DNA of 64,000 nt from an uncultured Actinomycetes bacterium (GTDB lineage Bacteria > Actinomycetota > Thermoleophilia > Gaiellales > Gaiellaceae): positions 15,080-79,079 of the forward strand of contig CAVZNV010000023.1 of assembly GCA_963776735.1 (NCBI GenBank), written 5' to 3'. Below are positions 3,473 to 36,517 of this stretch, in pieces. The position numbers and the translations under genes were made by a program. Below the pieces are notes generated by a model. That model ran no database searches. It saw only the letters and a list, made by a program, of their open reading frames with translations, and was not told where the DNA came from. Every line of letters begins with the position of its first letter. Positions within the stretch are counted from its first letter, which is position 1.

Positions 3473-3481
3473 ACTGCCCGC

Positions 3482-8015: not shown

Positions 8016-8038
8016 GACGCTCAACTCCGGTATCGGCC

Positions 8039-8494: not shown

Positions 8495-8557
8495 GCAGCA
8501 TCGACGGCCGCTCCGCTACGTCAACCGCCCCGCCCGAGGGATTCGTTCCGCCCGTTG

Positions 8558-9121
8558 TTAGCGCACCCGGGCCTGGACAGCGTGCAAGTGCCGCCGGGCG
8601 GACTTCAGCAGGGCGAGCGCCGCCGGGACGTTGCCGGAGTCGATGGTGTCGGCCGAATCGGTGACGACCCCGACGAGCACGCTCCCGTCGGCGACCGCCA
8701 AGACCGTGATCCCATTCGTCACCGTCTTGCCGAAGGCGTTCTTGCCGGTGATCGACCCGGTGAACCAGATGCTCGGCAGCTTGTAGCCCGGCACCTTGCC
8801 CTGAACGTGGACGCTTCCAGGCGGTTTCGCGCCCGACAGGTCGGCCCGCGCGTCGCTCGGGTTCGGGAACACGGCGTAGAAGATCGCGTCGTCCGGGTCG
8901 GGGCCATCCACGGCGACGCCCACCTCGCCGACGACGTGGTGTCCCTTCGCCTTCGAGGACGGCTGCTCCAGGCTCACCTTCGCCGAGGAGAACCCCGACG
9001 GGAGTTGCGAGTCCGGGTAGGCGGTCGTGAGCAGGGCCGTGTACAGCGACTTTGGCGAGGCCGAAGCCGTCGCAGCGAATACCCCGGCGACCAGCGCGGC
9101 GATAACCAGAAGCCGTCTCAC
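8558..9121 (-). CDS. secreted hypothetical protein
   Basis: GTG at 9121 gives VRRLLVIAALVAGVFAATASASP (signal peptide). The listed 309-aa ORF runs through the tRNA gene, so it cannot be real upstream of this start. Confidence 0.6.
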   Translation of the reverse strand: MRRLLVIAALVAGVFAATASASPKSLYTALLTTAYPDSQLPSGFSSAKVSLEQPSSKAKGHHVVGEVGVAVDGPDPDDAIFYAVFPNPSDARADLSGAKPPGSVHVQGKVPGYKLPSIWFTGSITGKNAFGKTVTNGITVLAVADGSVLVGVVTDSADTIDSGNVPAALALLKSARRHLHAVQARVR

Positions 9122-10122: not shown

Positions 10123-10133
10123 GGCGCGCCAGG

Positions 10134-12017: not shown

Positions 12018-12247
12018 GGAGTCGAGCTTAGGGATCGCGACGGCCGTGGAACAAAAATCCGCTCCGAGCGGCTTTTTCCACTTCGACACCACTTGACGAC
12101 CGGCCCGCCACCGTCGTATTGTCCTCGCGTCAGATCCGGTCGGCTTTCGGGCCAGCCGGATCTGGCGTTTTTATTGGGGTTTTTCGCGGCCCCGCAAGCC
12201 CTTTCAGTGGAGTGACGTCCGACGGCAGCCCTACTGTCTGTCGGCTC

Positions 12248-13441: not shown

Positions 13442-13470
13442 CGTACCGCCCGCAGGCGTACGATTGGCTC

Positions 13471-13707
13471 GTGGCCGACGCGTCCACGATCGAGCTGCTC
13501 GCCTGGGTGTCGAGCCGTCGGCGCACCTACGCCGAGGCGATGGACGCCTGGCGGACGCACTGCCCGCGGCTGACCGTCTGGGAGGACGCAGTCCTCGCCG
13601 GTCTCGTCCGGGTCGTTCGTGGGCCTGACGGGCAGCTCGTCGAGCTGACGGAGGCCGGCGAAACGGCCCTCGCGTCCGGGAATCGAGCGATACCGGCAAT
13701 CGTTTGA
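13471..13707 (+). CDS. small hypothetical protein
   Basis: 78-codon ORF with GC3-rich codon usage in the gap between rmuC and trxB. No family recognised. Confidence 0.4.
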   Translation: MADASTIELLAWVSSRRRTYAEAMDAWRTHCPRLTVWEDAVLAGLVRVVRGPDGQLVELTEAGETALASGNRAIPAIV

Positions 13708-13741
13708 CTACTCAAAGACATTTCTTCGACCTGGAGGGAAC

Positions 13742-14704
13742 GTGGCGACGAACGACGCACGCGAGCTGATCATCATCGGAGGCGGCCCAGCGGGGTACAC
13801 GGCCGCCCTGTACGCGGCCCGCGCGAACCTGAGCCCGCTCGTGATCGAGGGCATCCAGTGGGGCGGCCAGCTGATGATCACGAGCGACGTCGAGAACTAT
13901 CCCGGCTACCCCGAGGGTGTGCTCGGCCCGGCGATGATGGACGAGTTCCGTGCCCAGGCCGAGCGGTTCGGCGCCGAGTTCCTGACCGACGACGTCACCC
14001 GTGTCGACTTCTCCGAGCGGCCATTCCGCGTCTCCGTCGGCGACGAGGAGCATCGCGCCTGGACGGTGATCGTCGCGACCGGCGCGAACGCGCGCCAGCT
14101 CGGTCTCGAGACCGAGGTCGCTCTACAGGGTCGCGGCGTCTCGTACTGCGCCGTCTGCGACGCGGCGTTCTTCCGCGAGAAGACGGTCGTCGTGGTCGGC
14201 GGCGGCGACTCGGCGATGGAGGAGGCGACGTTCCTCGCCAAGTTCGCCAGCAAGGTGACGATCGTCCACCGCCGCGAGGAGTTCCGGGCGTCGCCGATCA
14301 TGGTCGACCGGGCCCGTCAGAACGAGAGGATCGACTGGGAGCTGAACGCGCTCGTCGACCGCGTGCTCGGCGAGGAGACCGGCAAGGTCACCGGCGTCGT
14401 GCTGCGCGACGTCCACTCCGGCGAGACCCGCGAGATCCCGGCCGACGGGGTCTTCGTCGCCGTCGGACACGACCCGACGACGAAGCTGTTCCTCGACTGG
14501 CTCGACCACGACGCCGCCGGCTACCTCGTGACGATGCCGGGCTCGACGAGGACGAACATCGAGGGTGTGTTCGCGGCCGGCGACGTCCAGGATCACGTCT
14601 ACAGGCAGGCGGTGACCGCCGCCGGATCGGGCTGCATGGCCGCCCTGGACGCGGAGCGCTTCCTCGCCGCCGAGCATCACCGTCAGCAGACGGCTGCCGT
14701 CTAG
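13742..14704 (+). CDS. trxB: thioredoxin-disulfide reductase
   Basis: FAD motif IIGGGPAGYTAA, redox-active CAVC, NADPH motif VVGGGDSAMEEA, GVFAAGDV. GGAGGGA ribosome-binding site before the GTG. Confidence 0.92.
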   Translation: MATNDARELIIIGGGPAGYTAALYAARANLSPLVIEGIQWGGQLMITSDVENYPGYPEGVLGPAMMDEFRAQAERFGAEFLTDDVTRVDFSERPFRVSVGDEEHRAWTVIVATGANARQLGLETEVALQGRGVSYCAVCDAAFFREKTVVVVGGGDSAMEEATFLAKFASKVTIVHRREEFRASPIMVDRARQNERIDWELNALVDRVLGEETGKVTGVVLRDVHSGETREIPADGVFVAVGHDPTTKLFLDWLDHDAAGYLVTMPGSTRTNIEGVFAAGDVQDHVYRQAVTAAGSGCMAALDAERFLAAEHHRQQTAAV

Positions 14705-14899
14705 CAGGCCAAAAGACACGGCTACGCTGAATCAAGTGCTCCGCCCAGCGATGCATACCGGCCTCTGGCCCGCGATCACGCAGCGCGTTGCCACGTCCTC
14801 AGTCGCGCCCGTATTTGCCAATACGAGAGCTCCCTGCGTCCTTGCATCGCTTGGTGCTCACGACCCAGCGACCCGGCAGCACCACTGGACGGAGCACTG

Positions 14900-15349
14900 A
14901 TGCCGTACTTCATCTGCCCGAACTGCAAGGCGCGGTCGATCGACCACGACCGGCGCGAGAGCCTGACCGACCCGACCGCGGTCGGCTGCCACCGCTGCGG
15001 CTTCGGCTTCCTGTTCGAGTTGATGGACGACTACTACCCCGCGCCCGGAACCGGCATGGTCGTCTGCGACGCGGACGGCCGGATCCTCGCCGCCGGCCGC
15101 GGACTGTTCGAGCTGACCGGCTATGAGGAGAAGGAGCTGATGGGACGCGAGGTCGTCGACGCGCTGCGCCTCGACGGCTTCCAGAACGGCCAGAACCCGT
15201 TCGCGCTCTCGCTCGAATGGGGCGTCCGCCGGCTCGGCGAGCAGTGCGAGCTGACCGCGGCCAGCGGCCTGCGCAAGCCGGTGACCGCGGACATCTTCCC
15301 CGCGTACGACGACGACGGCGGGTTGCTCGTCGCGTTTACCCCCCGCTAG
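14900..15349 (+). CDS. zinc-ribbon plus PAS domain protein
   Basis: N-terminal CPNC...CHRC four-Cys ribbon followed by a PAS-like fold (MVVCDADGRILAAGRGLFELTGYEEKELMGREV). Confidence 0.7.
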   Translation: MPYFICPNCKARSIDHDRRESLTDPTAVGCHRCGFGFLFELMDDYYPAPGTGMVVCDADGRILAAGRGLFELTGYEEKELMGREVVDALRLDGFQNGQNPFALSLEWGVRRLGEQCELTAASGLRKPVTADIFPAYDDDGGLLVAFTPR

Positions 15350-15734
15350 CGCGCGTCAGCTGCTCATTCGCTTCCTCGGCGCGGCGGGCGGACGTCATCA
15401 GGCGTTTGCTCCGTCGCGTGAATGCGAACAACCACCATCCGGCAACGACGAGATAGAGGGCGAACATGATCCACTCGCCGTCGACTGCGTGCGTTATCCC
15501 AATGCCGACCCAGCCTGCAGCAAGGGAATACATCAGCCAGGGCGACCTGATCCAGATAAGACGACCCTCGCCCGCCTGCAGCTTCCGTGCGCGCTCGACG
15601 GCGGCCGGCGCCAGGGCCGGATCGTGAACCGCTCGTCCCTCCACCACCGCATGGACGACTTCCGACCGCTGGTGAAATCGCCCGAACGCGAAGTAGAGCC
15701 GGTCACGCCACCGATCCACGACGCTCGACCCCAT
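15336..15734 (-). CDS. hypothetical membrane protein
   Basis: ATG at 15734 (MGSSVVDRW...). Two hydrophobic helices (WLMYSLAAGWVGIGI, IMFALYLVVAGWWLFAF). 14-nt convergent overlap with the PAS gene. Confidence 0.5.
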   Translation of the reverse strand: MGSSVVDRWRDRLYFAFGRFHQRSEVVHAVVEGRAVHDPALAPAAVERARKLQAGEGRLIWIRSPWLMYSLAAGWVGIGITHAVDGEWIMFALYLVVAGWWLFAFTRRSKRLMTSARRAEEANEQLTRASGG

Positions 15735-15768
15735 GCAACACAGTGTTGCAAGGTCGGACAGGGCTCGG

Positions 15769-16437
15769 CTAGACGCGGCTGCTCGGGCAGAGGTCGCTGA
15801 GCACGCAGTCCTCGCACCGTGGGGCACGCGCGATGCAAACCCGGCGACCGTGCCAGATCAGGAGGTGCGGGAAGATCCCCCACTCCGTCCGCGGCACGAG
15901 CCTGATCAAGTCGCGCTCGATCTTCACCGGGTCCTGCTGCTTCGTCAGCCCGAGCCGCTGCGACAGCCGCCGCACGTGCGTGTCGACCACGATGCCCTGC
16001 GGGTCGCCGAGCTCGGAGGCGACGACGTTCGCCGTCTTCCGCGCGACGCCCGGCAGTCGCACGAGCTCCTCGATCCGCCGCGGCACCCGCCCGTCGTACT
16101 CCTCGATCAGCATGCGCATCGTCCCGCGGATCGACTTCGTCTTCTGGCGGAAGAATCCGGTCTGGTAGATGTCGCGCTCGAGCTCCTCGACCGGCACCGC
16201 GAGGTAGTCCTCGGGTCGGCGGTACTTGACGAACAGGCGCTCCGTCACTTTGTTCACGTTCACGTCGGTCGTCTGCGCCGACAGCATCACGGCGACGAGC
16301 AGCTCGAGGTCGGATCGCGAGCGCAGGGCGATCCCTGCGTCCGGGTGCGCACGCTTCAGCCGTTCGACGATCGGACCGATGCGCTCGCGCTTCGGCCCGA
16401 CGCGCCGTCGCGCTTCCTCGACGTAGCTACGCGGCAC
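15769..16437 (-). CDS. nth: endonuclease III
   Basis: HhH-GPD motifs (LVAVMLSAQTTD, LPGVARKTANVV), C-terminal Fe-S Cys cluster C-x6-C-xx-C-x5-C. GTG at 16437 overlaps the addA stop. Confidence 0.9.
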   Translation of the reverse strand: MPRSYVEEARRRVGPKRERIGPIVERLKRAHPDAGIALRSRSDLELLVAVMLSAQTTDVNVNKVTERLFVKYRRPEDYLAVPVEELERDIYQTGFFRQKTKSIRGTMRMLIEEYDGRVPRRIEELVRLPGVARKTANVVASELGDPQGIVVDTHVRRLSQRLGLTKQQDPVKIERDLIRLVPRTEWGIFPHLLIWHGRRVCIARAPRCEDCVLSDLCPSSRV

Positions 16438-19400
16438 CCTGGGCCGCGCCGGTGAGCTCGGGAACCGGCTGCGGACCCCGACCCGGAAGTCGAGGACCTG
16501 CGCAGACGACGTCGAGAGCGGGACAGCCGGAGCATGCGCGTTCGCTCGGCCGCGGCTCGAACACGCCCGATCGCACGCGGGCGATCGCCTCGGAGAGCTC
16601 GGCCTCCAGCGCCGGGACATCGGCGCGGGAGTATTCCGCCGACACGGTCTCCTCCGGCCGCTCGAGGAACGTGTAGACGACCTCAACCTCGTCGGCTCCC
16701 GCCCGGAAGCACGCGAGCGCGTAGACGAGCCGCTGGATCCGGTACTCGTCGTCGACCACCTCGGCCGGCGACAGCTCGCCGAGCGAGTTCGTCTTGTAGT
16801 CGACGACGAGCGCGCGTCCCTCGGCGACGTTCAGCAGGTCGAGGAAGCCGTGGAAGAGGACGCCGTCGTGCTCGAATGCGAACGGACGCTCTGGCCGCAC
16901 GCCCTCGAGCCGGGCCAGCCGTGCCGCCAGCGCGGAGCCGCAGTACGCCTCGACGTGCTCCTGTGCCCGCTCGAGCTCTTCCCCGGTCACCGCCGGGTAC
17001 CAGGCCCGTACCTGCTCGACGTCGGGCACGGCGGGCGACGCCGGATCGACCAGCTCGAGCAGCCGGTGCACCGCGTCACCGAGCTCGGTCGCGAGCAGCC
17101 CGCCCGCCGTCTCGGCCGGCACAGCTCCGGGCCGGCGCTCGCGCATCCCCGCGACGCGCTCCGCGAAGAAGCGGTAGGAGCAGCGCTCGAAGAGCGCGAT
17201 CGCGCTGTAGGACAGCGAGCGCACGTTGTAGAGCGGTGGTGCCGGCAGCGGTGCCAGCGCAGGCAGCACCGGGGCGATGCGCGCTTCACCGTCCGGCTCG
17301 GAGTCGAACAGCGAGAGCTGCTCGTTCGCCTTCGTCGGCTCGAGCTCTGACGTGGCCGGCTCGCCGACGGCGTCCGCGTCGTACCGCTCGAGCCGCAGCA
17401 GGAGACGCGCCGTGCCGCGCTCCAGCTCCACGGGCGCCTCGGCCGAGCGTGCCAGGTCCTCGCCCGGGTCGATCCGTTGCAGCACCCAGCCGATCGGCGT
17501 TTCGTCGGCCTTGTCGGGATCGAGCGCGCCCGAGACGATCAGGCGGTCGATCGCCCGCGTCATGGCGACGTAGTAGAGGCGCAGCCGCTCGGCGCGGTCC
17601 TCCGCCTCGCGCGCCGCGCGCACCTCGTCGTAGGCGAACGCGGCGCGGCGCTTGCTCGTGTACGGGTCGGCGACCTTGAACCCGAAGCGACCGTCGGAGA
17701 GCGCGAGGATCTCGTCGGCGGCCGGAGCCGGCCGGTCGCGGCCCGCGTCGGCGACGATCACGACCTTGAACTCGAGTCCTTTGGCAGCGTGGATCGTCAG
17801 GAGCCGCACCGCGCCCGTTCCCTCCTCCTCCGCGACTGCTTCCAGCTCCCGCGCTCCGACGGCCTCCTGCCGCCGCACGAAGCGAACGAAGCCCTCGATG
17901 TCACGGCCGCGCAGCTCTTCGTACGACCGGGCAAGCCGCGCGAGCTTGCGCAGGTTGGCGTAACGGCGCTTGCCGTCCCACTGGGCGAGCACGGCCAGGT
18001 CGTAGTCGTGCTCCGAGACGATCTGCTCGCACAGGTGCTCGAGCGGCAGCCGCGCAGAGGCGGCGACGAGCCGGTCGTAGCGCTGGCGGAAGGCGCGGAG
18101 CAGCCGCCCGTCCTCCGGGGCGAGTGCCTGCGGAAGCTCGCGCTCGACCCCCGTGAACAGCGGCCGCCGCGGCGCAGCGCGACGGATCAGCACGAGCGCG
18201 TCGTTCGAGACGCCGACGAACGGCGAGGCGAGCACGGTCAGCAGCGACTCGTCGTCGTACCGGTTGTGCAGCAGGCGCAGGTACGCGAGCAGGTCGACCA
18301 CCTGCTGCTGCCCGAAGTACCCCTTGCCCGTGGCGCGGTATGTCGGCAAGCCGGCGCGGCGCAGCTCCTCCTCGTACCATTCGGCGTCCGTTCCGGCGGC
18401 GAAGAGGAGCACGATCTCGCCGGGCTGCGCGGCGCCGGTGTCGACGAGCTCGCGCACTCGGCGGGCGATGTTGCGCGCCTCGCCGCGCCGCCAGTGCTCA
18501 CCCGTTTCCTCGTAGCTCCCCTTGTCGGTGACGAGCAACTCGACCGGGTGGCCGAAGACCGGGTCGGGGAAGTCGCCGGAGGCTGCGAGCGGCTGGAACT
18601 CGTCGCCGAACTCGTCGCCGAAGAGATGGTTGACGGCCGCGAGGACCTCCGGCCGCGAGCGGTAGTTCCGCGTCAGCGCCAGCCCGCCACCCGACCGCTC
18701 GCGACGGTCGCGGAAGACGGCGACGTCCGCGTGCCGGAAGCCGTAGATCGACTGGAACTCGTCGCCGACGAAGAACATCTCGCGCTCGCCCGGGCCTTCG
18801 GTCAGCAAGTCGACGAGCTCGCACTGAAGGCGGTTCGTGTCCTGGAACTCGTCGACCATGACCGAGCGGAACCGCAGCTGCTCGCGCTCGCGGATCTCCT
18901 CGTGATCCGCCAGCAGGTCGCGCGCGGCGAGCTGGAGATCCTCGAAGTCGAGCGCCGACTCGCGCTCCTTCGCCGCCGAGTACGCGGCGTGGAAGCGCCC
19001 GAGCAACTCCTGCAGCAGCTCGCGGTCGCCGGCCGCGATCGTGTCCAGCGCCGCCTGCTCGACGCGCTTGCGCGCCTCCTCGTAGCTCGCCGCGCGCTCA
19101 CCGCTCGCGCGGAATGCCGACAGGTCGAGCAGCCGATCAGGGATCGGATTCGCGTCGAGCAGATCGCGGAGCGCCGTGGACTGGTCTCGCTGCCGCGCGG
19201 TGGCCTTGACGTCGCCGGCGAGGCAGCCAGCCGCCTCGCGCAGCTCGTCGAGCCGCGCCTCCAGCGGCGCCGCCTCGCCCAGCTCAAGCTCGAGCGGCCG
19301 GCCGGCTGCGCGGAGCGTCTCGTAGATGCCGATCAGCATCCCGCGGAGGCGGCCGCCACCGTAGGCGACGAGCAGCCGCGTGCGGTCGGGCTCCCCGCCT

Positions 19401-19813
19401 GCGCAGAACGCGCCGAGCGCCTCGTCGAAGGCCTCGCCGCGTAGGACGGACGCCTGCGCCTCGTCCAGCTCCCGGAAGCGCGGGTCGAGCCCGGCGGCGA
19501 ACGGATAGGCGCGCAGCAGGCGGTTGCAGAAGCCGTGGATCGTGGAGATCCAGGCGCCGTCCAGCTCGCGCGCCGCGTCCGGACGTCCGCGCGCGAGGAG
19601 CGCCTCGCGGATGCGCGACCGCAGCTCGCCGGCCGCCTTGCGCGTGTAGGTGATGACGAGGATCGAGTCGACGTCGAGCCCGTCGTCGCAGACCGCACGG
19701 ACGAAACGCTCGACGAGCACGGCCGTCTTGCCCGTACCCGCGCCGGCCGAGACGAAGACCTCGCCGCGCGCGTCGATCGCGGCCTGCTGCTCGGGGTTCG
19801 GCTGCCAGCTCAT
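16427..19813 (-). CDS. addA: ATP-dependent helicase/nuclease subunit A (UvrD-type motor plus RecB-type nuclease)
   Basis: GAGTGKT Walker A, UvrD/PcrA helicase motifs, C-terminal PD-(D/E)XK motif (LDLL...VVDYKTN). Its ATG overlaps the addB stop as ATGA. Confidence 0.85.
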   Translation of the reverse strand: MSWQPNPEQQAAIDARGEVFVSAGAGTGKTAVLVERFVRAVCDDGLDVDSILVITYTRKAAGELRSRIREALLARGRPDAARELDGAWISTIHGFCNRLLRAYPFAAGLDPRFRELDEAQASVLRGEAFDEALGAFCAGGEPDRTRLLVAYGGGRLRGMLIGIYETLRAAGRPLELELGEAAPLEARLDELREAAGCLAGDVKATARQRDQSTALRDLLDANPIPDRLLDLSAFRASGERAASYEEARKRVEQAALDTIAAGDRELLQELLGRFHAAYSAAKERESALDFEDLQLAARDLLADHEEIREREQLRFRSVMVDEFQDTNRLQCELVDLLTEGPGEREMFFVGDEFQSIYGFRHADVAVFRDRRERSGGGLALTRNYRSRPEVLAAVNHLFGDEFGDEFQPLAASGDFPDPVFGHPVELLVTDKGSYEETGEHWRRGEARNIARRVRELVDTGAAQPGEIVLLFAAGTDAEWYEEELRRAGLPTYRATGKGYFGQQQVVDLLAYLRLLHNRYDDESLLTVLASPFVGVSNDALVLIRRAAPRRPLFTGVERELPQALAPEDGRLLRAFRQRYDRLVAASARLPLEHLCEQIVSEHDYDLAVLAQWDGKRRYANLRKLARLARSYEELRGRDIEGFVRFVRRQEAVGARELEAVAEEEGTGAVRLLTIHAAKGLEFKVVIVADAGRDRPAPAADEILALSDGRFGFKVADPYTSKRRAAFAYDEVRAAREAEDRAERLRLYYVAMTRAIDRLIVSGALDPDKADETPIGWVLQRIDPGEDLARSAEAPVELERGTARLLLRLERYDADAVGEPATSELEPTKANEQLSLFDSEPDGEARIAPVLPALAPLPAPPLYNVRSLSYSAIALFERCSYRFFAERVAGMRERRPGAVPAETAGGLLATELGDAVHRLLELVDPASPAVPDVEQVRAWYPAVTGEELERAQEHVEAYCGSALAARLARLEGVRPERPFAFEHDGVLFHGFLDLLNVAEGRALVVDYKTNSLGELSPAEVVDDEYRIQRLVYALACFRAGADEVEVVYTFLERPEETVSAEYSRADVPALEAELSEAIARVRSGVFEPRPSERACSGCPALDVVCAGPRLPGRGPQPVPELTGAAQGAA

Positions 19814-22725
19814 GCGCGCCGGATCCTGCAGACGGTCCAGAGGTCGCACCAGGACGGGCATTCGTCGCCGCGCGGGTCGTGGCGCACGTCGCCCTCCTGG
19901 ATGCGTACCGCGAACTCGCGCGCCTTCTCGCGGGCGGTCTCGACGCGCGACCAGAACGTCTCGTCGTCCACGTAGTCCTTGTCCGAAAGCCCGGGGAGCC
20001 CGTCCTCGCGTGCGTCCTCACGCAGGAGCCCGCGCATCTTGCGCGCGCCCGCGAGCGGCCGGTAGAGCCCTCCGAGTGGCTCGATCCCGACCAGGTCACG
20101 CAGGACGAGCATGTAGAGCGGGATCTGGAGCCGCAGCTCCTTCTCGATCTCGGTCGCCGAGTGCGCCGCCTTGCCCGACTTGTAGTCGATCACGATCCCG
20201 CGCGCGCTGAACGGGTCGACGTCGATCCGGTCGATCTTTCCCGAGAGCGTGACGCCGCCGAGGTCGAGGCCGCGCTGGAGGTTCTGCGGCGAGCGCTCCG
20301 AGCCGAACGAGACCTCGAACCGCCGCGGGACGAGCGGCAACGGCTGCTCCGCCTCGGCGTGGACGAGCGCCTCGAGGTCGCGCCAGAGCGTCTGGTCGAG
20401 CTCGCGGCGCTGCAGGTCGCTCATGTCCATGCGGATGCCGGAGAGTGCGTCGTCGAGGCACGAGCGCATGAAGCGCACGGCGTCGTCCACACGGTCGGGC
20501 TCGACCCGGTCGGAGCCGAGCTCCTTCGGGAGCCCGTTGAAAAATCGGTTCAGCGCCGTGTGCGCGATGCTCCCCTTCAGCTTGGCGTCGACTTCCGCGT
20601 CGATGGAGCGCGGGTCGAGGAAACGCTCGACAAACCAGGCGGACGAGCAGTCGGCGAAGCGCTCGAGCTCGGTCACGCTGAAGGAGTCGCGTGCGCCGAG
20701 CGACTCGAGCACGAGCGGGTGCGTGAGCTTCGTCCGCCGCGTGAACGCCCGGCGAGCCCGGTCGAGGCGCCGATCCCAGCCGTTCGCGCAGGCGAGCGCC
20801 GACGCCTCGGCCGAGTCGGTCGCGTCGAGCCGCGCCAACGCGCGCAGCCGCTCGCGGTCGGTCCTCGCCTCCGGAAGCTCCCGCGTGAGCGCCGACAGCG
20901 GGCGGCGGATCGTCCAGCGGGCGACGTCGTCGGGCTCGAAGACGGCGCGGACGTCGTCCCAGAACGGGCTCGCCTCGCGCGGCGACCCGTCGTCCGTCGC
21001 GGCTTCGCGAACGAGGTAGAGGCGTCGCGAGGCGCGGGCGCAGGCGGTGTAGAAGAGATAGCGGTCGCGCTCGACGGCGCCGGCTCGCGCGAGCCGACCT
21101 CCGAGTCGCCGCCGGGCGGCGTCGTCGAGGAACGGCGACTCGCGCTCGCGCCGCGGCAGGCCGCCCTCTTCCAGCCCGAGCACGAACACGACCTCGAAGC
21201 GCCGCGTGCGGGCGCGGGCGAGGTCGAGCACCGCGAGCCGGCCCGATTCGCCCGCGCGGGGGCCGGGCACGGTCGCGTCCTCGAGCGCCGCGAGTACATC
21301 CTCGCGGGACAGGTCTCCTCCCCCGATCTGCCAGGCGGCAAGCTCGTCGAGCAGGCGGTGGACAGCCTCGAACGCGCGTAGATCGCGTCGTGCGTCCTCG
21401 GTCGCCGCAGGGCGGAAGGGCGAGTGCGCCGCCGCAGCCATGGCGCGGGCCTGCTCGCGCACGGCCTCGACCGGGTCGAGCTCCGAGCGCAGCGCGTTCA
21501 CGTCGTGCAGCACGCCCGGGCGAAGCTTCTCGATCTCCTCTTCGACCCGTTCCGGCTCCGCGATCCCACGCCCGCGCAACCGGCCCTCGGCGAAGTCGAC
21601 CTGGCGGCGCGAAAGGCCGGAATACGGCGAGCGCAGGAAGCCGAAGAGGCTCGCGCGGTCGCCGCCGAGCCACGCGAAGCGCAGGAGCGAGCACAGCGCG
21701 GCACCGAACGGCGTGCGCGACAGCCGCGCCGGGCCTTCGAGCGCGTAGGGGATGCCGGCGGTCCCGAAGGCGGTGCCGAGCGGCCCGGCGAAGCGCTCGA
21801 CCGACGGGCCGACGACGGCGATCGCCTCCGGCGCGAGCCCGCCGCGCACGAGGTCGAGCACCTCGTCTGCAACCAGCTCGAGCGCGGCCCGGGTGCCGGC
21901 GCCTTCGAGGAAGCGAACGGCCCCTCCGATCTCGACCGGCGAGGGCGGTGCATCCGCGAAGAGCGCCCGTTCCAGATGGGCCAGTGCGGGGTGCGCAACT
22001 TCGCCGAAGCGCGGCGGCAGTTCCTCGATGCGGCCGCCCGCGAGCCGGGCGAGATCCTGTGCTGTCTCCTGCACCGCGGCAAAGGCGGGCCGCCCCGGCT
22101 CGTACGGGAGCGAGACGGTGACGTCGACCCGGCCGGCGAGGGTCTCGAGCAACCGCCACTCGGCACCCGTGAGGTCCTCGAAGCCGTAGGCGAAGACCGG
22201 GCGCCCGTCCCAGGCGTCCAGCTCGCCCGAGATCCGCTCGGCGGCCCTGGCGCGGAGGAGGTCGCGGTCCCAGAGATCGGCGCGGTCGAGCTCGGCACGA
22301 TAGGCCGCGTACAGGCGGCCGAGATCCCCGTCGACCGCGGCCGGCTCGTGCAGCCCCGACTCGAGCTCGCCGATCGCGGCCAGCAGCACCGGGACGAACC
22401 CGCTCCGCCGAGCCGAGGCGCCGAGGCCGTTGAGCGTGACCGAGCCGAGTGCCCGCCTCGCGACGAGCGCCCGCTGCGCGTCGGACGCGGACGTGCGGTA
22501 GCCGGGCGAGGCCTGCGCGATCTCCGTGAACAGGTCGTCGAAGGTCACGATGCGCCCGCCGAGAAGCGCGCCGGCCGTCGCGAGCAACTCCCGCTCGACC
22601 CGGTCGACGTCCGCCCGGTTTGGCACGATCAGGATAGGCTCCCGATCGATGTCGGCCAGGTAGCGATCGAGGAGTCGTGCGACTTTTCCGGCGTTCGCGG
22701 GGCCCGCGAGCAGCGTCAGCGGCAT
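19810..22725 (-). CDS. addB: helicase/nuclease subunit B with C-terminal Fe-S nuclease domain (AddB/RexB-like)
   Basis: Starts MPLTLLAGPANAGKV at ATG 22725. PD-(D/E)XK nuclease (VIDYKSG). One Cys upstream (FADCSSAWF) plus terminal CPSWCDLWTVC, matching the AddB 4-Cys Fe-S arrangement. Confidence 0.8.
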   Translation of the reverse strand: MPLTLLAGPANAGKVARLLDRYLADIDREPILIVPNRADVDRVERELLATAGALLGGRIVTFDDLFTEIAQASPGYRTSASDAQRALVARRALGSVTLNGLGASARRSGFVPVLLAAIGELESGLHEPAAVDGDLGRLYAAYRAELDRADLWDRDLLRARAAERISGELDAWDGRPVFAYGFEDLTGAEWRLLETLAGRVDVTVSLPYEPGRPAFAAVQETAQDLARLAGGRIEELPPRFGEVAHPALAHLERALFADAPPSPVEIGGAVRFLEGAGTRAALELVADEVLDLVRGGLAPEAIAVVGPSVERFAGPLGTAFGTAGIPYALEGPARLSRTPFGAALCSLLRFAWLGGDRASLFGFLRSPYSGLSRRQVDFAEGRLRGRGIAEPERVEEEIEKLRPGVLHDVNALRSELDPVEAVREQARAMAAAAHSPFRPAATEDARRDLRAFEAVHRLLDELAAWQIGGGDLSREDVLAALEDATVPGPRAGESGRLAVLDLARARTRRFEVVFVLGLEEGGLPRRERESPFLDDAARRRLGGRLARAGAVERDRYLFYTACARASRRLYLVREAATDDGSPREASPFWDDVRAVFEPDDVARWTIRRPLSALTRELPEARTDRERLRALARLDATDSAEASALACANGWDRRLDRARRAFTRRTKLTHPLVLESLGARDSFSVTELERFADCSSAWFVERFLDPRSIDAEVDAKLKGSIAHTALNRFFNGLPKELGSDRVEPDRVDDAVRFMRSCLDDALSGIRMDMSDLQRRELDQTLWRDLEALVHAEAEQPLPLVPRRFEVSFGSERSPQNLQRGLDLGGVTLSGKIDRIDVDPFSARGIVIDYKSGKAAHSATEIEKELRLQIPLYMLVLRDLVGIEPLGGLYRPLAGARKMRGLLREDAREDGLPGLSDKDYVDDETFWSRVETAREKAREFAVRIQEGDVRHDPRGDECPSWCDLWTVCRIRRA

Positions 22726-30748: not shown

Positions 30749-31377
30749 GCCGTCCGCTCGTACAGCTCGACGAGCGCGGCTCTCGGATCGTCGTCGATGT
30801 AGCCGCCGTGCGACAGACAGAGGAGGTCGATCTCGAGGTCGAGCAGGCTCGCCAGGCTGTCACGGGAGATACCGGCACGGAGCCGGGTGTGGTCTTCGGA
30901 GAGCTGGAGCGGGCCCGACGAGTCGCGGCGCGTGACGAGATCGCCGATGAAGAGGATGTTCGGCTCCCCCGGCCGGTAGAGCGAGTAGTGGTCGTACTCG
31001 GGGCCGGGGGTCCGGATCGCCCGGAAGTCCGCCGGTAGGTGGGTGCCTTCGACGTAGTGCTGGTCGGGCTCGGTGAGCAGGCCCCACGACCCGCGAGGCG
31101 CGACGACGCGCGCGCCGTGCTCGAACCTGTAGCGCCACGAGGCGCGCTGGTGGCAGCCTCGGGTGAGCAGCGCATACGACACCGCGGGGAACCGGTCGGC
31201 GGCCGCGTAGGTCATCGGGAGCGGGTCGACGAAGATGACGCCCGCCCGCGTGTAAACCGAGTACGAGTCGCTCTGAGCGCCTCCGATCCGCTCGTCGGAG
31301 ACAGACCAGTGCTCGGTCGCCTCGGCGATCGACCGCGTCCTCTGCGCCCGTTCGGTCGGCTCCTTCACGCCGATCAT
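30745..31377 (-). CDS. MBL-fold-like protein with degenerate metal-binding motif
   Basis: C-terminal ...LLCLSHGGYIDDDP resembles the MBL fold. The position of HxHxDH reads TRGCHQRAS. ATGA overlaps at both ends. Confidence 0.5.
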   Translation of the reverse strand: MIGVKEPTERAQRTRSIAEATEHWSVSDERIGGAQSDSYSVYTRAGVIFVDPLPMTYAAADRFPAVSYALLTRGCHQRASWRYRFEHGARVVAPRGSWGLLTEPDQHYVEGTHLPADFRAIRTPGPEYDHYSLYRPGEPNILFIGDLVTRRDSSGPLQLSEDHTRLRAGISRDSLASLLDLEIDLLCLSHGGYIDDDPRAALVELYERTA

Positions 31378-32372
31378 CCTAGGGGCCGGGCGAGCCGAAA
31401 GAAACCGTCTCTTTCGGACACGGCTCCGGCGAGCTCGAGCTCCGTCAGGGCTGCGGCGAGCGCACCCGGGTCGAGCTCGAGCGCGCGCGCGAGCGCGTCC
31501 GCTGGCAGCGGCTCGGCCTCGAGCCGGGCGAGGACGAGGGCCGCTGTCTCCCCCAGCCCGGCCGCGACGACGACGGGCTGCTCGGGCTCGATGCCGAACG
31601 TCTCGAGCACGTCCGCGATCGCGGTGAGCGGTGTCGCGCCGTTCCGGAGCAGCCGGTTCGAGCCGACCGAGAGCGAGGAGGTGATCTCGCCCGGCACCGC
31701 GAACACCTCGCGCCCCTCCTCGAGCGCGAGGTCGGCGGTGATCAGCGCGCCGCTCCGCTCGCGCGCCTCGACGACGATCGACGCCTGCGCGAGTCCCGCG
31801 ACGATGCGGTTCCGAGCGGGAAAGCGCCACGGAGCCGGCTCGACACCGGGCGCGTATTCCGACACCACCAGGCCGCGCTCCCCGATCCGGGCGGCGAGCT
31901 CCGCGTGCGCCGCGGGGTAGTCGCGGTCGACGCCGCAACCGAGGACTGCGACGGTCAGCCCTCCCGCGTCGAGCGCGCCCCGGTGGGCATGGCCGTCGAC
32001 GCCGCGCGCGAGGCCGCTGACGACGACGAGCCCGGCGGCGGCGAGTTCGCGGCCGAGCATCCGCGCGACGTCGGCGCCGTAGGCGGAGCAGCTGCGGGCA
32101 CCCACGACGGCGACCGAGGGACGATCGAGCATCGCGAGCTCGCCCCGCCCGCGGACGAAGAGGCCTGCCGGCGCGTCGAAGATCGCGGCCAGCGCCGACG
32201 GGAACTCCCTCGCCGAGCGCGGCAGCCAGCGCAGGCCGCGTTGCTCGAGGCCGGCAAGGTACGCGCGCTCGTCGAACTCGCGCCGGAAGCGCGCGAAGCG
32301 ATCGCTCCGTGGAGCCTCGAGCACGTGCGAGTCCGTGTGCGCGGCGAACGCGGCGAGGGCGAGCTCGCTCAC
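31374..32372 (-). CDS. dprA: DNA-processing protein DprA
   Basis: Rossmann-like DprA core (VVGARSCSAYG, VVSGLARGVDGHAHRGAL, RNRIVAGL, SGALITADLALEEGREVFAVPG). GTGA overlap with the comM 3' fragment. Confidence 0.85.
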   Translation of the reverse strand: MSELALAAFAAHTDSHVLEAPRSDRFARFRREFDERAYLAGLEQRGLRWLPRSAREFPSALAAIFDAPAGLFVRGRGELAMLDRPSVAVVGARSCSAYGADVARMLGRELAAAGLVVVSGLARGVDGHAHRGALDAGGLTVAVLGCGVDRDYPAAHAELAARIGERGLVVSEYAPGVEPAPWRFPARNRIVAGLAQASIVVEARERSGALITADLALEEGREVFAVPGEITSSLSVGSNRLLRNGATPLTAIADVLETFGIEPEQPVVVAAGLGETAALVLARLEAEPLPADALARALELDPGALAAALTELELAGAVSERDGFFRLARPLG

Positions 32373-32953
32373 GCGGACTGGAGCTCCGTCGGAGTGCGGT
32401 ACGAGAGCGCTTCCGAGACGTGTTCGGGCAGGACGTCCGCCGTCCCGGCCAGGGCCGCGATCGTCTGGGCGGTGCGGGCGACTCGGGCACGCCCGCGGCC
32501 GGAGAGAGGAAGCCGCTCGACCGCGCGCGTGAGCAGCTCGTCGGCCTCGGCCGTGCGCAGAGGCAACTTGCCGCGGAGCCGCTCACGCGCTGCGCAGACG
32601 CGCTCGCGTACCGGCGCGGAGGCTTCGGACGGCCCGGCTGCGAGCTCGGCCCCGCGCGGACGCGGCACGGTGACGACGAGGTCGAAGCGGTCGAGCAGAG
32701 CGCGCGAGAGCTTGTTCCGGAAGGCGGCGAGCCGCTGCGGCGAGCATGCGCACTCGGCGGCCGGATCGCCGCGCGCCCCGCAGGGGCACAGGTTCATCGT
32801 CGCAACGAGCTGGAACCGCGCCGGGTACAGCGCCTGGCCGGCGGCCCGCGCGACGCTGACGATGCCGTCCTCCAGCGGTTGCCGCAGCGACTCCAGCGCC
32901 GGCCGCATGAACTCGGGCAGTTCGTCGAGCAACAGGACGCCGCGGTGGGCCAG
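32369..32953 (-). pseudogene. comM: comM (YifB/Mg-chelatase-like ATPase), 3' fragment
   Basis: Encodes LAHRGVLLLDELPEF...LRQPLEDG...NLCPCG...RFDL (Walker B onward). An in-frame TGA at 32957-32959 lies just upstream. Confidence 0.85.
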
Positions 32954-32974
32954 CGTTCAGGAATGTCGCTTGAG
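32946..32974 (-). repeat. module-tail repeat, copy 1 (abuts comM 3' fragment)
   Basis: TGGGCCAGCGTTCAGGAATGTCGCTTGAG, 25/29 identical to 33415-33443. Confidence 0.8.
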
Positions 32975-32996
32975 ACTCGTGAGGTGTCGTAGGCGC

Positions 32997-33344
32997 TCAA
33001 AGGACGGGGCAATCGGTGAGCGACGAGACTTTCAGCGTGTTGCCGCCTACACGGTCGCCGATACCGAGCGTGAGGCAACCAAGCCGATCGCCGTTCCCGT
33101 TTGTGACGAGCCACCAGCTCGTCCCGTCTCCGTAGTCGTGGGCGGTCACGGAGACGCCGGGCGGCAGGTACTTGACGTACCGAAACCGGTCGCACGCTGA
33201 CGTGCGGCAATCGCGAACGACAACCGCGGTCGTTGTGTCGTTCCGCAGCGCTATCGTCCACGTCCCGTCCTCCCGGTTCAAATCACAGCCAGCGGCCGCC
33301 CAAACGAGAGCAAGCAAGGCCACACACCCGGTGATCGCGCGCAT
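32997..33344 (-). CDS. small lipoprotein, unknown function (cargo of comM insert, module 1)
   Basis: MRAITGCVALLALVWAAAGC lipobox, Cys-rich 115 aa, same strand as comM. Confidence 0.6.
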   Translation of the reverse strand: MRAITGCVALLALVWAAAGCDLNREDGTWTIALRNDTTTAVVVRDCRTSACDRFRYVKYLPPGVSVTAHDYGDGTSWWLVTNGNGDRLGCLTLGIGDRVGGNTLKVSSLTDCPVL

Positions 33345-33414
33345 GGGTTAGTTGTACGCCACCTCGCTAGTCAGCGCATCGCCAGAACAGGCGATCAGGC
33401 GGGAAGGGTCTCGG

Positions 33415-33443
33415 ATGGGCCAGCGTGCGGGAATGTCCCTTGA
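33415..33443 (-). repeat. module-tail repeat, copy 2 (between the two modules)
   Basis: TGGGCCAGCGTGCGGGAATGTCCCTTGAA. It sits 31 nt past the stop of the 240-aa ORF, in the same relative position as copy 1. Confidence 0.8.
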
Positions 33444-33473
33444 AGTAGTCCGCTGTCCGACCGGGGCGTGCTT

Positions 33474-34196
33474 CTAGCCGCCAGCAGCCCAGCCTTGGAA
33501 GGGTGAGAGCGAGCGTCCCGGCGGATCGAGAGTGCCTGCGGTGAAGTTCCAGTAGCCGGGGCCAAACATCACCCGACGCACGATGATCCGCTGGGCGCGT
33601 GCCCTTGCCCATTCGAGGGCCTCTGACAAGCGGACGCCGTCAACTTGCTCGATCACCGTCGCGTCGAGTTCGGTGAACTTCTCGACTTGTTGATGCGGGT
33701 TGTACTCGAGCAGTTGCCCCGAGTACATGCGCGTGCCGATCCGACGCTCCGGCGTCCACTGCTCTGTGACGTGGACGTAGCCTCCGTAGCGGCGCTCAGT
33801 CTCCGGCTCGCGCTGTCCGACTGTCGCGATGTGTGTCGGCCAGCGAGGGATGTCCGCCGTCTCGTCGCAGAGTTCCCCGGCCTCAAACTGCTGTTCGGGT
33901 TCCTCGTCGTCGTCTGCGTGTTTATCCGTGATTACGTTCACGTAGACGTAGGGGGCACGCTGACGACCCCACGTGATCGCGTCTCCGACGTCATCGAAGT
34001 ACGGCCCGGTGATGTCGGATCGCCCCTCGGCGTCGGCCACGAGCCAATAAGTGCCGAACTTCCCTTCACTGGCTTCGTAGGCGAACTCGTACGCCGATTC
34101 GCTTTCGACGCGTGCCAGACCACTGACCAACCGATACCCCTCGGCGATGACAACAAGGCGCTCGCCCATCGACCCGAAACCATAGAGCGAGGGCAA
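33474..34196 (-). CDS. acidic hypothetical protein (cargo of comM insert, module 2)
   Basis: 240-codon ORF (TTG 34196; alternative ATG 34169), GC3-rich, no signal peptide, no family recognised. Possible internal two-domain duplication. Confidence 0.55.
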   Translation of the reverse strand: MPSLYGFGSMGERLVVIAEGYRLVSGLARVESESAYEFAYEASEGKFGTYWLVADAEGRSDITGPYFDDVGDAITWGRQRAPYVYVNVITDKHADDDEEPEQQFEAGELCDETADIPRWPTHIATVGQREPETERRYGGYVHVTEQWTPERRIGTRMYSGQLLEYNPHQQVEKFTELDATVIEQVDGVRLSEALEWARARAQRIIVRRVMFGPGYWNFTAGTLDPPGRSLSPFQGWAAGG

Positions 34197-34242
34197 CGGT
34201 CAGTAGTCGTGGTTCCGCCTGATCGCGCCAAGTTCCTGGCGA

Positions 34243-35142
34243 CTACGCCATGGCCTGCGCGAGGCTCGCCTCGCCCGGCCTCGGCCCGGGGCCACCACCG
34301 ACGATCGCCGCCGTCGAGGCAGAGTGGTGCGGCGCTCGAAACGGCGGCTCGTCGATCAGCGGTCGTCCCGGCTGGAGCGTGCCGGCAACGGAGTGGATGC
34401 GCGTCACCTCCAGCGCTTCGTCCGACGCGAGCGGCGGCAGGATCCCCGGCAATCGGCGGGCGAGCATCGTCTTCCCCGTCCCCGGCGGCCCGGCGAACAG
34501 CAGGTTGTGCGATCCGGCGGCTGCGATCTCGAGCGCTCGGCGGGCGCGTTCCTGACCACGGACGTCGGCAAGGTCGGGATGGACGCGGCGCGGCCCGTTG
34601 CCGTTCGCGGGCGCCGAGTACGGCGGGGGTTCGCCCTCGCCGCGCAGATAGGCGACCGCCTCGGCAAGGTGCCGCAGAGGCACTGCGTCGACGCCGGCCA
34701 GCTCGGCCTCCGGGGTCGACTCGGCGGCGCAGAGGAGCCGCGTGAAACCGGCTCGTCGCGCGCCTTCGGCAGCCGCGAGGACGCCGCCGACGGGCCGGAT
34801 GCGCCCGTCGAGCGCAAGCTCGCCGAGCGCCGCGTGCCCCGCCAGCGCCGTCGCCGGGATCTGCCGCGAGGCGGCGAGAATCGCAAGGGCGATCGGCAGG
34901 TCGAAGCCCGAGCCCTCCTTCCGCAGCCCGGCCGGAGCGAGGTTGACGGTGATCCGCCGAACCGGCCACTCGAGCTCGGCCGACGCGATGCCGACGCGGA
35001 CGCGCTCCTTCGCCTCCTGGCAGGCGCGGTCGGCAAGCCCGACAATCGCGAACCCGGGGACGCCGAGCTGGAGGTGCGCCTCGACCTCGACGCGGCGCGC
35101 CTCGAGGCCGACGAGCGCATGCGTGACCGTCCGCGCAAGCAC
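34243..35142 (-). pseudogene. comM: comM (YifB/Mg-chelatase-like ATPase), 5' fragment
   Basis: Lon-protease-like N-domain plus AAA+ Walker A (LLFAGPPGTGKTMLA), ending ...RPGEASLA. It then reads QAMA-stop into the insert. Confidence 0.85.
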
Positions 35143-35191
35143 GGGTCGACCGTAGCCCGGACTTCGTGACGTGTCTGTGCCGGTTTTGCGC

Positions 35192-36319
35192 CTATTCGGG
35201 CACGGCGACGAGCACGTCCTCGAAGTACTCGCCGGCCCGGCGACCGGTACGGCGGTTCACGTGCCTCCGCAGCCGTCCGCGGAGCTTCAGCCCGGCCTGC
35301 GACAGGATCCCCGGATAGAGCTCGCGGCGGTCGTTGACGACGATCAGCAGCGGCGCGCCCGGGTGGAGCGCGTCTGCGGCACGGCGCAGTGTCGCGGCGA
35401 TTCCGTCGCAGTAAGCCGCCAGCGACGCCTTGCTCGTCCCGCCGGCAGCAGCGCCGATCTCGTGCTCGCGCCGGTCGTCCAGGTCGAGTAGCTCGTAGGC
35501 GTAGCGGTGCTGCTCGTGGTAGTCGATCAGACCCGGATAGGGCGGCGAGGTGATGACCGCGTCGAAGCGGCCGTCCCAGTCGAGCTCGCGCGAGTCGCCG
35601 TGCCGGACGAGTGCCTCCCGACCTCGGGCGCGCACGCGCGCGAACGCCTTGATCCGTGCCAGCGTGTCGAGCGCGTAGCGGCTGAGGAAGTGGGAGGCGT
35701 GGTCGACGGGCCGGCACTCGCGCCGGTGCTTGTGGCACCAGTACGGCTCGAGCTGCGGCGTCCGCGGGAAGTCGAGGTCGAAGTGTGTGGTCAGCCGGGC
35801 CGACCGCGCGGCGCGCGCGAGCACGACGCGCATGACGTCGGCGTGCTCGTACTCCTCGAGCAGCGTCCGCCAGCAGAGCAGGTCGGCGGCCGCCTGCGGA
35901 GCGAACCACTGTCCGACGTAACCGTGTCCGAGGGACAGTCCCTCGGACGTGTCCGGACCGGACGCGATGCGCCGGACTGCGTCGCGCAGCTCCTTCTCGA
36001 GGACGAACTCGTTGTACCGAGCAGTCTTGACCCGCATGAGCAGGCAGTTGAACGCAGCCAGGTCGGCGCCGGCCGCGTCATGACCGGACTCGAGCGCCTG
36101 CACGAGCGTCGTCCCCGAGCCGGCGAACGGGTCGAGGGCGCTCCCGCCGGGCGCGACGTACCGGTCGAGCAGCACCTCGACGAGCTGCGGAATGAACTTG
36201 CCCAGGTACGGATGGAGCCGGTGAACGTGCTTTGTCCGCTCCCGCTCCGGTAGCTGCCCCTCCGACCACGACAGGTCGAGGTCGATCTTCGCGTAGAGCG
36301 CGCTTTGAGTGTGCGCCAT
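35192..36319 (-). CDS. site-specific DNA methyltransferase (N4/N6 amino-MTase; motif I precedes SPPY)
   Basis: HPYLGKFIPQLV...LDPFAGSGTTLVQA (AdoMet motif I) lies N-terminal and DAVITSPPYPG (motif IV) C-terminal. No adjacent endonuclease ORF. Confidence 0.85.
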   Translation of the reverse strand: MAHTQSALYAKIDLDLSWSEGQLPERERTKHVHRLHPYLGKFIPQLVEVLLDRYVAPGGSALDPFAGSGTTLVQALESGHDAAGADLAAFNCLLMRVKTARYNEFVLEKELRDAVRRIASGPDTSEGLSLGHGYVGQWFAPQAAADLLCWRTLLEEYEHADVMRVVLARAARSARLTTHFDLDFPRTPQLEPYWCHKHRRECRPVDHASHFLSRYALDTLARIKAFARVRARGREALVRHGDSRELDWDGRFDAVITSPPYPGLIDYHEQHRYAYELLDLDDRREHEIGAAAGGTSKASLAAYCDGIAATLRRAADALHPGAPLLIVVNDRRELYPGILSQAGLKLRGRLRRHVNRRTGRRAGEYFEDVLVAVPE

Positions 36320-36517
36320 AGTCCTCTCTCAGTTCGTCGAGACTGAAGAGGACCCCTTCTTCGACTCGTGGCCGAAGGACCCTTCTAGGTCACGTCCTGG
36401 TCCGTTGCTTGACCGCGGCTCGGCGAGTCAAATCCGCAGTCAGATCCTCGGAGCGAGTGCCGGGCTCGGCCCGGTACTCGCACGCTCAGGACGCATGACC
36501 GACTAGGAAACGGGGCT

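Follow-up and report, generated by a model that had tools for sequence, protein, structure and literature searches.

Two tandem gene cassettes split comM in an uncultured Gaiellaceae bacterium and probably belong to a large-serine-recombinase cassette system

Insertions into comM (yifB) are known from Acinetobacter, where AbaR/Tn6022 elements, i.e. Tn7-like transposons with terminal inverted repeats (TIRs), tns genes and a 5-bp target duplication, use this gene as target. A further well-described group are the staphylococcal cassette chromosome (SCC) elements, whose units typically measure 20-60 kb. They are integrated by a large serine recombinase (LSR) at an attB site in a conserved housekeeping gene; direct repeats split the region into tandem units, and some of these units (psiSCC) have no recombinase genes (PMC4723332). 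For serine integrases, the motif bound by the zinc-ribbon domain is shifted inward by 5 bp in attB half-sites relative to those of attP, and canonical enzymes are described as recombining only attP with attB (PMC3783163). Here we analyse a 64,000-nucleotide stretch (the window) of contig CAVZNV010000023.1 (assembly GCA_963776735.1, positions 15,080 to 79,079) from an uncultured bacterium of the Gaiellaceae, in which comM is split by a 1,310-bp insert. With a probability of roughly two in three, this insert represents two tandem non-autonomous gene cassettes of an LSR-driven cassette system, integrated at a site in comM that mimics attB.

The first-pass annotation of the window had described comM as split by a 1,310-bp insert, and alignment of the flanks to a syntenic locus with intact comM (L119; loci used for comparison carry an L and a number) bears this out, placing the insert precisely at 32946-34255. 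At the nucleotide level, the window flanks match L119 up to its position 6887 and from 6880 onward, and comM of L119 is uninterrupted at the insertion point (...GGCGAGGCGAGCCTCGCGCA/CCGCGGCGTG...; here and below, a slash marks the point of exchange). Since the flanks match L119 on both sides of the insert, the insertion is exact, with 0 bases lost and no true target duplication; of the 8 nt common to both flank alignments, the left copy is comM sequence (CTCGCGCA) and the right copy is the insert's own (CTGGCCCA). Synteny with L119 extends over rimM-trmD-lepB-rplS-rnhB-yraN-htpX-MTase-comM-dprA (MTase, methyltransferase gene). When the two comM pieces are joined, a ComM protein of 487 amino acids (aa) is restored, to which intact 487-aa orthologues are 95-96% identical at 100% coverage. 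The relatives thus carry an uninterrupted comM that lacks the segment, rather than an open reading frame (ORF) spanning it. Pfam assigns ChlI and positions 1-106 of the Mg_chelatase profile to the 5' ORF, and positions 103-204 of the same profile together with Mg_chelatase_C to the 3' reading frame (32956-32369), so that the joined pieces comprise all three domains with a contiguous Walker B region. The native codons of the 5' ORF, which has 299 codons on the minus strand (35142-34243), run to ...RPGEASLA and finish at the crossover dinucleotide CA (34257-34256), followed by QAMA and a TAG stop (34243-34245). An in-frame TGA (32959-32957) precedes the 3' piece, which reads (T)LAHRGVLLLDELPEF down to 32369. 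Both stops had been recorded in the first-pass annotation and were found again, as was the GTGA overlap by which comM lies upstream of dprA. The GC content of the insert is 60-66% as compared to 74-78% in the flanks. The insertion has presumably inactivated comM and competence.

The earlier view of the insert as one undivided block has to be revised. The strongest direct repeat of the region, 28 nt in length, has copies at the right junction (32946-32973) and within the insert (33416-33443), 470 bp apart (chance expectation 0.01). Because it occurs both at the junction and inside, the insert consists of two units (Table 1), each of which finishes in ...GACATTCCyGmACGCTGGCCCA. At the right junction, CTGGCCCA of the site mimics the comM codons L-A-H and provides the in-frame TGA mentioned above. 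As anticipated, the insert carries two cargo ORFs on the comM strand, neither of which encodes a recombinase or transposase, and it is devoid of TIRs. ORF240 and ORF115 display a coding-like pattern of GC content at the three codon positions (GC1/GC2/GC3), with GC below that of the host genes. Neither has a match in Pfam, PHROGs or PADLOC; in a word-indexed search ORF240 retrieved itself alone, and an exhaustive search added six weak relatives. ORF115 encodes a putative lipoprotein, judged by its signal peptide and lipobox-like motif.

The unit end is a member of a site family with a consensus of ~29 nt (CTCrGGkGACATTCCCGmACGCTGGCC-CA). Scanning for an exact pattern of the 22-nt core, with one genome per species, yielded at least 118 stretches, and among the matches listed nearly all hosts are soil metagenome-assembled genomes (MAGs) labelled Gaiellaceae, Gaiellales, Solirubrobacteraceae, Thermoleophilia or 'Actinomycetes'. 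A profile built from the scan copies detects 311 sites in the 118 loci listed, and just the two copies in the window. The conserved stretch reaches ~35 nt (cTCrGGk GACATTCCCGmACGCTGGCCCA GsCGAg), to which the cassette start contributes only the proximal 6-8 nt (GsCGAG) of an opposite arm. In these loci, 188 of 191 adjacent site pairs are co-oriented; the spacing has a median of 771 bp (range 237-5,517), and up to 10 sites occur in 8 kb. Sites are intergenic, close to gene 3' ends, and the units between them carry accessory genes in either orientation, among them genes for alpha/beta-hydrolases, S-adenosylmethionine (SAM) methyltransferases, AadA-type nucleotidyltransferases and beta-lactamase-fold proteins, as well as for GNATs, MFS and chromate transporters and cupins. 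Near-identical units are present in different genomes, and divergence begins exactly at the site, on either side. The ends of homology blocks between genomes accumulate at both site edges, with 31% of endpoints no more than 40 nt from a site. As judged from these alignments, the units between sites reassort between genomes. No copy of the site was found in IMG/VR viral contigs, and the PLSDB plasmids gave chance-level matches only. The exact site is also present on contigs binned as Gemmatimonadales, Eisenbacteria, Thermoanaerobaculia and Acidimicrobiia (L103, a 698-kb contig, as well as L006, L025, L056, L022, L051 and L052), which reflects either cross-phylum spread or binning error. In the literature covered, we found no description of the site sequence or of LSR-driven mini-cassette arrays; as this coverage is incomplete, the cassette system is regarded as undescribed only provisionally.

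The left comM junction retains the comM-type CTCGCGCA and the right one the cassette-type CTGGCCCA; thus, the exchange took place at CA or directly behind it. As the flanking bases are similar, the point is resolved no further than ...C[GC]CA/. A 2-bp, non-palindromic central CA is found in every comparison: the window versus L119, the split comM genes of L085, L140, L165 and L223, the heads of arrays and nine LSR junctions. The array heads include three genomes in which synteny breaks downstream of the same mqnA-like housekeeping gene, ~28 nt past its stop codon (L037 at ~4640, L072 at ~2774, L106 at ~2144). These arrays begin at a degenerate site ending in GTCGCCCA/ or GTCGTCCA/, and we read the 3' flank of the mqnA-like gene as a conserved native entry point for arrays.

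The first-pass annotation had also presented comM as a recurrent target, and this is borne out at the level of a single dinucleotide: at least five independent insertions (window, L085, L140, L165, L223) hit the identical CA, across ComM lineages that share as little as 45% identity. The Gaiellales MAG L085, with 54% identity in ComM, has one cassette of ~555 bp between ...GGCGAGATCACCCTCGCCCA/ and ...GCTGGCCCA/CCGTGGCGTG. A metagenome scan for the right-junction signature returned mostly intact comM, but also the split genes of L140, L223 and L165. In these intact genes, the native TLAHRGV codons show the same sequence as the final 11 nt of the site together with the bases downstream. Array cassettes in L211 (4236-4304) and L134 (minus strand, just past site 10041-10000) open with comM 3'-side stubs of 70 nt and 28 nt, respectively, which we take for fossils of comM insertions. 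They look like sequence taken along when a cassette left comM; in this way, cassettes may be able to acquire new sequence. An element specific to comM was rejected, given that comM adjoins just 2 of 308 sites in the genome loci. A second LSR lineage is located beside comM genes broken elsewhere, at about residue 345-347 (...QLVAT/MNLCPCG), in L134 (985-2724, minus strand), together with L198, and in L155 (11888-13585, minus strand). The LSR of L155 was dismissed as a marker of the TLAH site, its comM break being at another position. Hence, serine integrases seem to have two or more distinct targets within comM.

Clustering of ORFs and of array flanks (55 upstream, 41 downstream) revealed no conserved recombinase gene. 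A probe screen of ~0.9 Mb around sites with XerD, IntI1, gamma-delta resolvase and IS200 TnpA returned a single unrelated truncated tyrosine integrase in L023 and missed the LSRs, which were found on re-screening with the L165 and L134 proteins. In related genomes, LSR genes are physically linked to array heads. The comM junction of L165 is adjoined by the gene for a 468-aa protein with Resolvase, Recombinase and Zn_ribbon_recom domains, i.e. an LSR, as part of an element of more than 6.4 kb at the same comM dinucleotide. A close homologue (E = 7e-140) is carried by L059, a Gaiellales MAG, where the order is tRNA-Arg, ...CACTGGCC-CA-TCCGAGTGTTCGTGTATGTTCCC, LSR gene, rolling-circle Rep gene and five co-oriented canonical sites. 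The LSR family comprises 1,848 proteins at E <= 1e-40, and in each of the nine members located on long contigs, CA and the conserved arm GsCGAGTGTTCGTGTATGTTCCCTGAG come before the LSR gene, and the Rep gene comes after it. With the chromosomal B arm on its other side, this CA forms a B-CA-P' junction in nine of nine LSR loci (L165, L059 and L240-L249 are among the LSR-bearing loci). The reverse complement of P', RC(P'), shares 19-21 of 27 positions with the cassette-end consensus in five of the six loci scored and 16 of 27 in L244, as compared to 7.7 ± 2.3 for random 27-mers; within its own locus, the P' arm ranks in the top 1-7 of up to 43,000 27-mers. From this match we conclude that both belong to a single attP of ~56 bp with CA at its centre, in which the cassette end is the P arm and the sequence next to the LSR gene is the P' arm. 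Of the two imperfect inverted-repeat arms (~20-27 bp) that flank the centre of LSR attachment sites, the autonomous elements have both, and the cassettes keep only GsCGAG on their right side.

The arrangement of further sites around the LSR genes is one-sided: all 22 P-type sites lie downstream of the LSR and are co-oriented, and none lies upstream (97 kb of downstream and 67 kb of upstream sequence). A canonical P arm also forms the end of the LSR elements, e.g. in L240 at 3917. At the nine LSR junctions, the chromosomal B arms have the consensus GTCAGGCGAGAGCACGCTCGCG, and share the distal motif with the P arm at a different distance: TCrGGyG of the B arms begins 21-22 nt from CA, and CTCrGGkG of 88 P arms with the exact motif begins at 27 nt. 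This 5-bp shift agrees with the attB/attP rule of PMC3783163. In L245, an LSR-Rep module and an eight-site array (1017-9045) are located beside genes for type IV secretion and conjugation (TraG, TrwB, TrbL-like; 10001-20814), and some arrays may ride on conjugative elements.

The sequence left of the insertion point in comM, CCG GGC GAG GCG AGC CTC GCG CA, resembles the B arm of the LSR junctions at more positions (Table 1) than random 22-mers do (6.7 ± 2.3 matches). The B'-like arm, represented by the first 22 nt of the comM 3' part (32945-32924), is weaker, with 13 of 22 matches to the mirrored B consensus. On a two-sided attB template the empty comM site scores 28 of 44 (z ~4.7), which makes it joint best of 5,402 CA positions in the window; against the single template of L240, it is the unique best. 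Intact comM genes of many bacteria reach 15.9 of 22 on average, 9 of these positions being fixed by the search pattern. The best explanation is that the conserved comM codons P-G-E-x-S/T-L-A-H mimic attB in high-GC genomes.

We propose that a cassette is composed of cargo, a 27-nt P arm (CTCrGGkGACATTCCCGmACGCTGGCC) and the crossover CA, and that its autonomous relatives would be integrative mini-elements of ~3.5 kb or more, which encode LSR and a rolling-circle Rep and carry attP as P-CA-P', the P' arm immediately preceding the LSR gene. The insertion into comM would be catalysed in trans, by an LSR whose gene is located elsewhere in this genome or in the population. That is, a circular cassette, or a circle of two cassettes, with P-CA-GsCGAG would recombine at the attB-like CA (Ala-His) of comM and thereby split the gene at this CA without loss or duplication. 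If cassettes move as circles, a circle of both cassettes, or of cassette 1 by itself, would be joined as ACGCTGGCCCA/GGCCATGGCG, and a circle of only cassette 2 as ACGCTGGCCCA/TCCGAGACCC. Exchange of right halves between B-CA-x and P-CA-x would give the same two site types; since the same types would be produced, no directionality factor would be needed for the reverse reaction, and arrays would extend from their B-arm head, similar to growth at attI. The hit in comM may be to the advantage of the cassettes by shutting down transformation. In its widest form, the proposal is a 'serine integron', in which the LSR of a ~3.5-kb LSR-Rep mini-element shuttles hundreds of recombinase-less mini-cassettes with one attP arm in soil Thermoleophilia and comM was hit via its attB-mimic codons. 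To this we would give slightly less than even odds, and it is put forward tentatively.

Several observations weigh against an LSR-driven cassette system. There is no LSR in the 64-kb window nor in 117 of the 118 site-centred genome loci, and it is for this reason that action in trans is something we infer; an LSR gene next to an attP arm is a feature of the related loci L165, L059 and L240-L249, and the window lacks it. The cassette sites are one-armed: their right side retains just GsCGAG, without the distal motif. Given such sites and the restriction of canonical enzymes to attP x attB, as described in PMC3783163, growth and excision of arrays would need relaxed enzyme behaviour. L244 and L249 possess LSR-Rep and a B-CA-P' junction of the usual form, yet no P-type site is present in the 10 kb downstream, and their right ends were not found. 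With 15 of 22 positions, comM agrees with the B arm to a moderate degree, and its two-sided score is equalled by one other CA of the window. Finally, all comparison data stem from MAGs or metagenome assemblies.

An alternative history would be one of decay, in which a full LSR-Rep element integrated at the comM attB and later deletions removed recombinase and Rep, leaving the cassettes as remnants. L165 indeed has a full LSR-bearing element at exactly the comM dinucleotide, and the canonical P arm at the end of LSR elements would fit as well. Nevertheless, we regard decay as unlikely: both units have a P arm and a GsCGAG-type start of their own, as do hundreds of units in arrays; near-identical units stand beside different neighbours in different genomes, with breakpoints at the sites; and the left junction bears no trace of LSR, Rep or a long P' arm. 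It is also conceivable that the site is a host repeat, similar to repetitive extragenic palindromic (REP) sequences or terminators, and that the cassettes reassort and entered comM by short-homology or illegitimate recombination, e.g. after transformation, without any dedicated recombinase. Such a repeat would account for the position of sites near gene 3' ends, for the lack of a linked recombinase at most arrays and for the 6 of 8 nt of microhomology between comM flank and site at the junction. It would hardly account for co-orientation at a ratio of 188 to 3, for five or more independent insertions at the identical CA in ComM proteins as distant as 45% identity, or for a site mirrored by the LSR-adjoining arm with a 5-bp shift between B and P; together with the lack of hairpin covariation, this makes a host repeat rather improbable. 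Assembly error, by which the 1.3-kb segment was wrongly joined into comM, deserves mention because the source is evidently a metagenome-assembled contig and repeated sites of 28-38 nt can confuse assemblers. With both junctions exact to the base against the empty site and the same architecture in the independent assemblies L085, L140, L165 and L223, hardly any room is left for it.

A folded (hairpin) site was rejected, as no covariation was detected in the inverted repeat on its flanks (scores of 3.2, 3.2 and 3.1 for pairings within the own cassette, in situ and at random), and no inverted copy of the site core was found upstream at the array loci. An inner mini-hairpin is weakly supported, with A-C mismatches common in the putative stem and a slight association of positions -4 and 9 (p = 0.009). 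Single-strand transposition by HUH enzymes, as in non-autonomous IS200/IS605 palindrome-associated transposable elements (PATEs) or IS91/Helitron-like elements, inserts 3' of a short target without duplication, and would explain the missing TIRs, the conserved 3' end with a minimal 5' end and the tandem head-to-tail order; the mini-hairpin, 12 nt from the cut, might be its subterminal structure. The mismatches in this stem speak against it, there is no hairpin at the second end and no Y1 transposase in the ~0.9 Mb around sites, subterminal hairpins and Y1/Y2 enzymes being the hallmarks sought, and the asymmetry is better explained by the LSR evidence. HUH transposition is thus very improbable. 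Little more than a token chance is given to a classical integron or a cluster of attC sites lacking an integron integrase (CALIN), in which the sites would be attC recombined by a tyrosine integron integrase. Co-oriented arrays of small, mostly promoterless-looking cassettes with integron-like cargo are reminiscent of integrons; yet the sites are just ~35 nt long, without R''/R' GTTRRRY boxes, bipartite hairpin or covariation, the sole tyrosine recombinase in ~0.9 Mb is the unrelated truncated integrase, no conserved gene is present at 55 array starts, and the crossover is at CA, beside a dyad of the kind typical of serine recombinases. A site of the Xer/dif type was discarded upon inspection, as the arms are not palindromic in the manner of dif and crossover is at the site edge.

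Thus, insertion of two cassettes by an LSR in trans remains the preferred reading, and the closest mechanistic relative of the cassette system is SCC/SCCmec with its Ccr recombinases. In both, tandem units are parted by direct repeats of the att core, and some units lack a recombinase. They differ in size, as SCC units measure many kb (8.9 kb in psiSCC; PMC4723332), whereas the units described here have a median of ~0.8 kb with up to 10 in 8 kb. Moreover, SCC uses one locus, the 3' end of rlmH, and leaves the gene intact, while here many loci are used, with one-armed attP halves as sites, and comM is destroyed. The targets here are comM (disrupted), the mqnA 3' region, a tRNA-Arg flank and others rather than rlmH, and the annotated proteins closest to the LSR are actinobacterial integrases, not members of the Ccr clade. 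Integrons share co-oriented small mobile cassettes with adaptive genes, entry at a head that in certain loci (L059, L245) adjoins the recombinase gene, and insertion into secondary sites from time to time. Their defining components, IntI and attC, were both not found; instead of folded attC and GTT crossover there is a serine recombinase, which is encoded on a mobile element and usually unlinked. Serine integrases of phages (Listeria A118-type; PMC3783163) and of actinomycete integrative and conjugative elements (AICEs; the int-rep-FtsK module of M. avium pS2b) share the domains, a pseudo-palindromic attP, a 2-bp centre, the 5-bp shift and an int gene abutting an attP arm. The LSR is 47% identical to the integrase of the AICE-like module on plasmid pS2b and 33-38% identical to phage serine integrases. 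Their elements, however, are single autonomous units, and we know of none that seeds arrays of recombinase-less mini-cassettes with half sites. As to AbaR/Tn6022, with which the first-pass annotation had compared the locus, the common target gene comM/yifB and the presumed loss of competence stand, but the likeness ends there: TIRs, 5-bp duplication and tns genes are absent at the window insert, and the evidence points to a different mechanism, an LSR acting in trans.

Table 1. Features of the split comM locus (window coordinates; a slash marks the insertion point).
Feature	Position	Strand	Description
comM (yifB) 5' part	34256..35142	-	native codons to ...GEASLA; alignment to L119 stops at 34256
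attB-like B arm in comM	34258..34279	-	GCCGGGCGAGGCGAGCCTCGCG, encodes P-G-E-A-S-L-A; 15/22 versus B-arm consensus of LSR junctions
Cassette 1 (840 bp)	33416..34255	-	starts GGCCATGG (proximal P'-like start), ends with P arm + CA
Cargo ORF240 (cassette 1)	33474..34196	-	near-orphan protein; GC1/GC2/GC3 0.67/0.47/0.76
Internal cassette site	33410..33444	-	P arm 33444-33418 (CTTCAAGGGACATTCCCGCACGCTGGCC), CA 33417-33416, then TCCGAG opening cassette 2; nhmmer E = 1.5e-10
Cassette 2 (470 bp)	32946..33415	-	starts TCCGAGAC, ends with P arm + CA at comM right junction
Cargo ORF115 (cassette 2)	32997..33344	-	small protein, signal peptide, lipobox-like LVWAAAGC; GC1/GC2/GC3 0.60/0.55/0.78
Right-junction cassette site	32946..32974	-	P arm 32974-32948 (TCTCAAGCGACATTCCTGAACGCTGGCC), CA 32947-32946; nhmmer E = 1.6e-7
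comM 3' part	32369..32945	-	native sequence restarts at CCGCGGCGTC...
dprA	31374..32372	-	intact, directly downstream of comM, GTGA overlap with comM stop
Empty-site (intact comM) join			...AGCCTCGCGCA/CCGCGGCG...

Beside comM, the window encodes a type II N6/N4 DNA methyltransferase (35192-36319, minus strand), which is located between htpX and comM without an adjoining restriction enzyme gene and is kept at the same position in the closest relatives (L119, P0002 contig). An Rfam scan of 31000-36500 at E <= 1 gave no group I or II intron, and a self-splicing intron was therefore rejected; its only match, to the small RNA ASdes, lies outside the insert within the methyltransferase gene (35793-35854, plus strand), and with 23.6 bits versus a gathering score of 40 (E = 0.05) is most likely due to chance. 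A scan for promoters and terminators found nothing, and is uninformative for an organism of this type. The truncated tyrosine integrase of L023 (3667-4257, plus strand) is of phage type and lies ~200 bp from a cassette site, apparently unrelated to the cassettes; a tRNA-like fragment beside it was not called by ARAGORN, whose sole call in this locus was tRNA-Met at 5994-6067.

To our knowledge, classical integrons have rarely if ever been reported in Actinomycetota. If the proposed system is real, an integron lifestyle would have evolved independently on a serine-recombinase chassis, in Actinomycetota and in abundant uncultured soil lineages. Mimicry of attB by the PGExS/TLAH codons would provide a concrete reason, at the level of sequence, why comM is a recurrent target. 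The serine integrases involved may act on one-armed sites, in both directions and without a directionality factor, which would be of interest for genome-insertion engineering. Moreover, the site model could serve as a simple handle to mine soil metagenomes for a large pool of mobile accessory genes; the cargo found here includes genes for AadA-like and beta-lactamase-fold proteins, GNATs and transporters.

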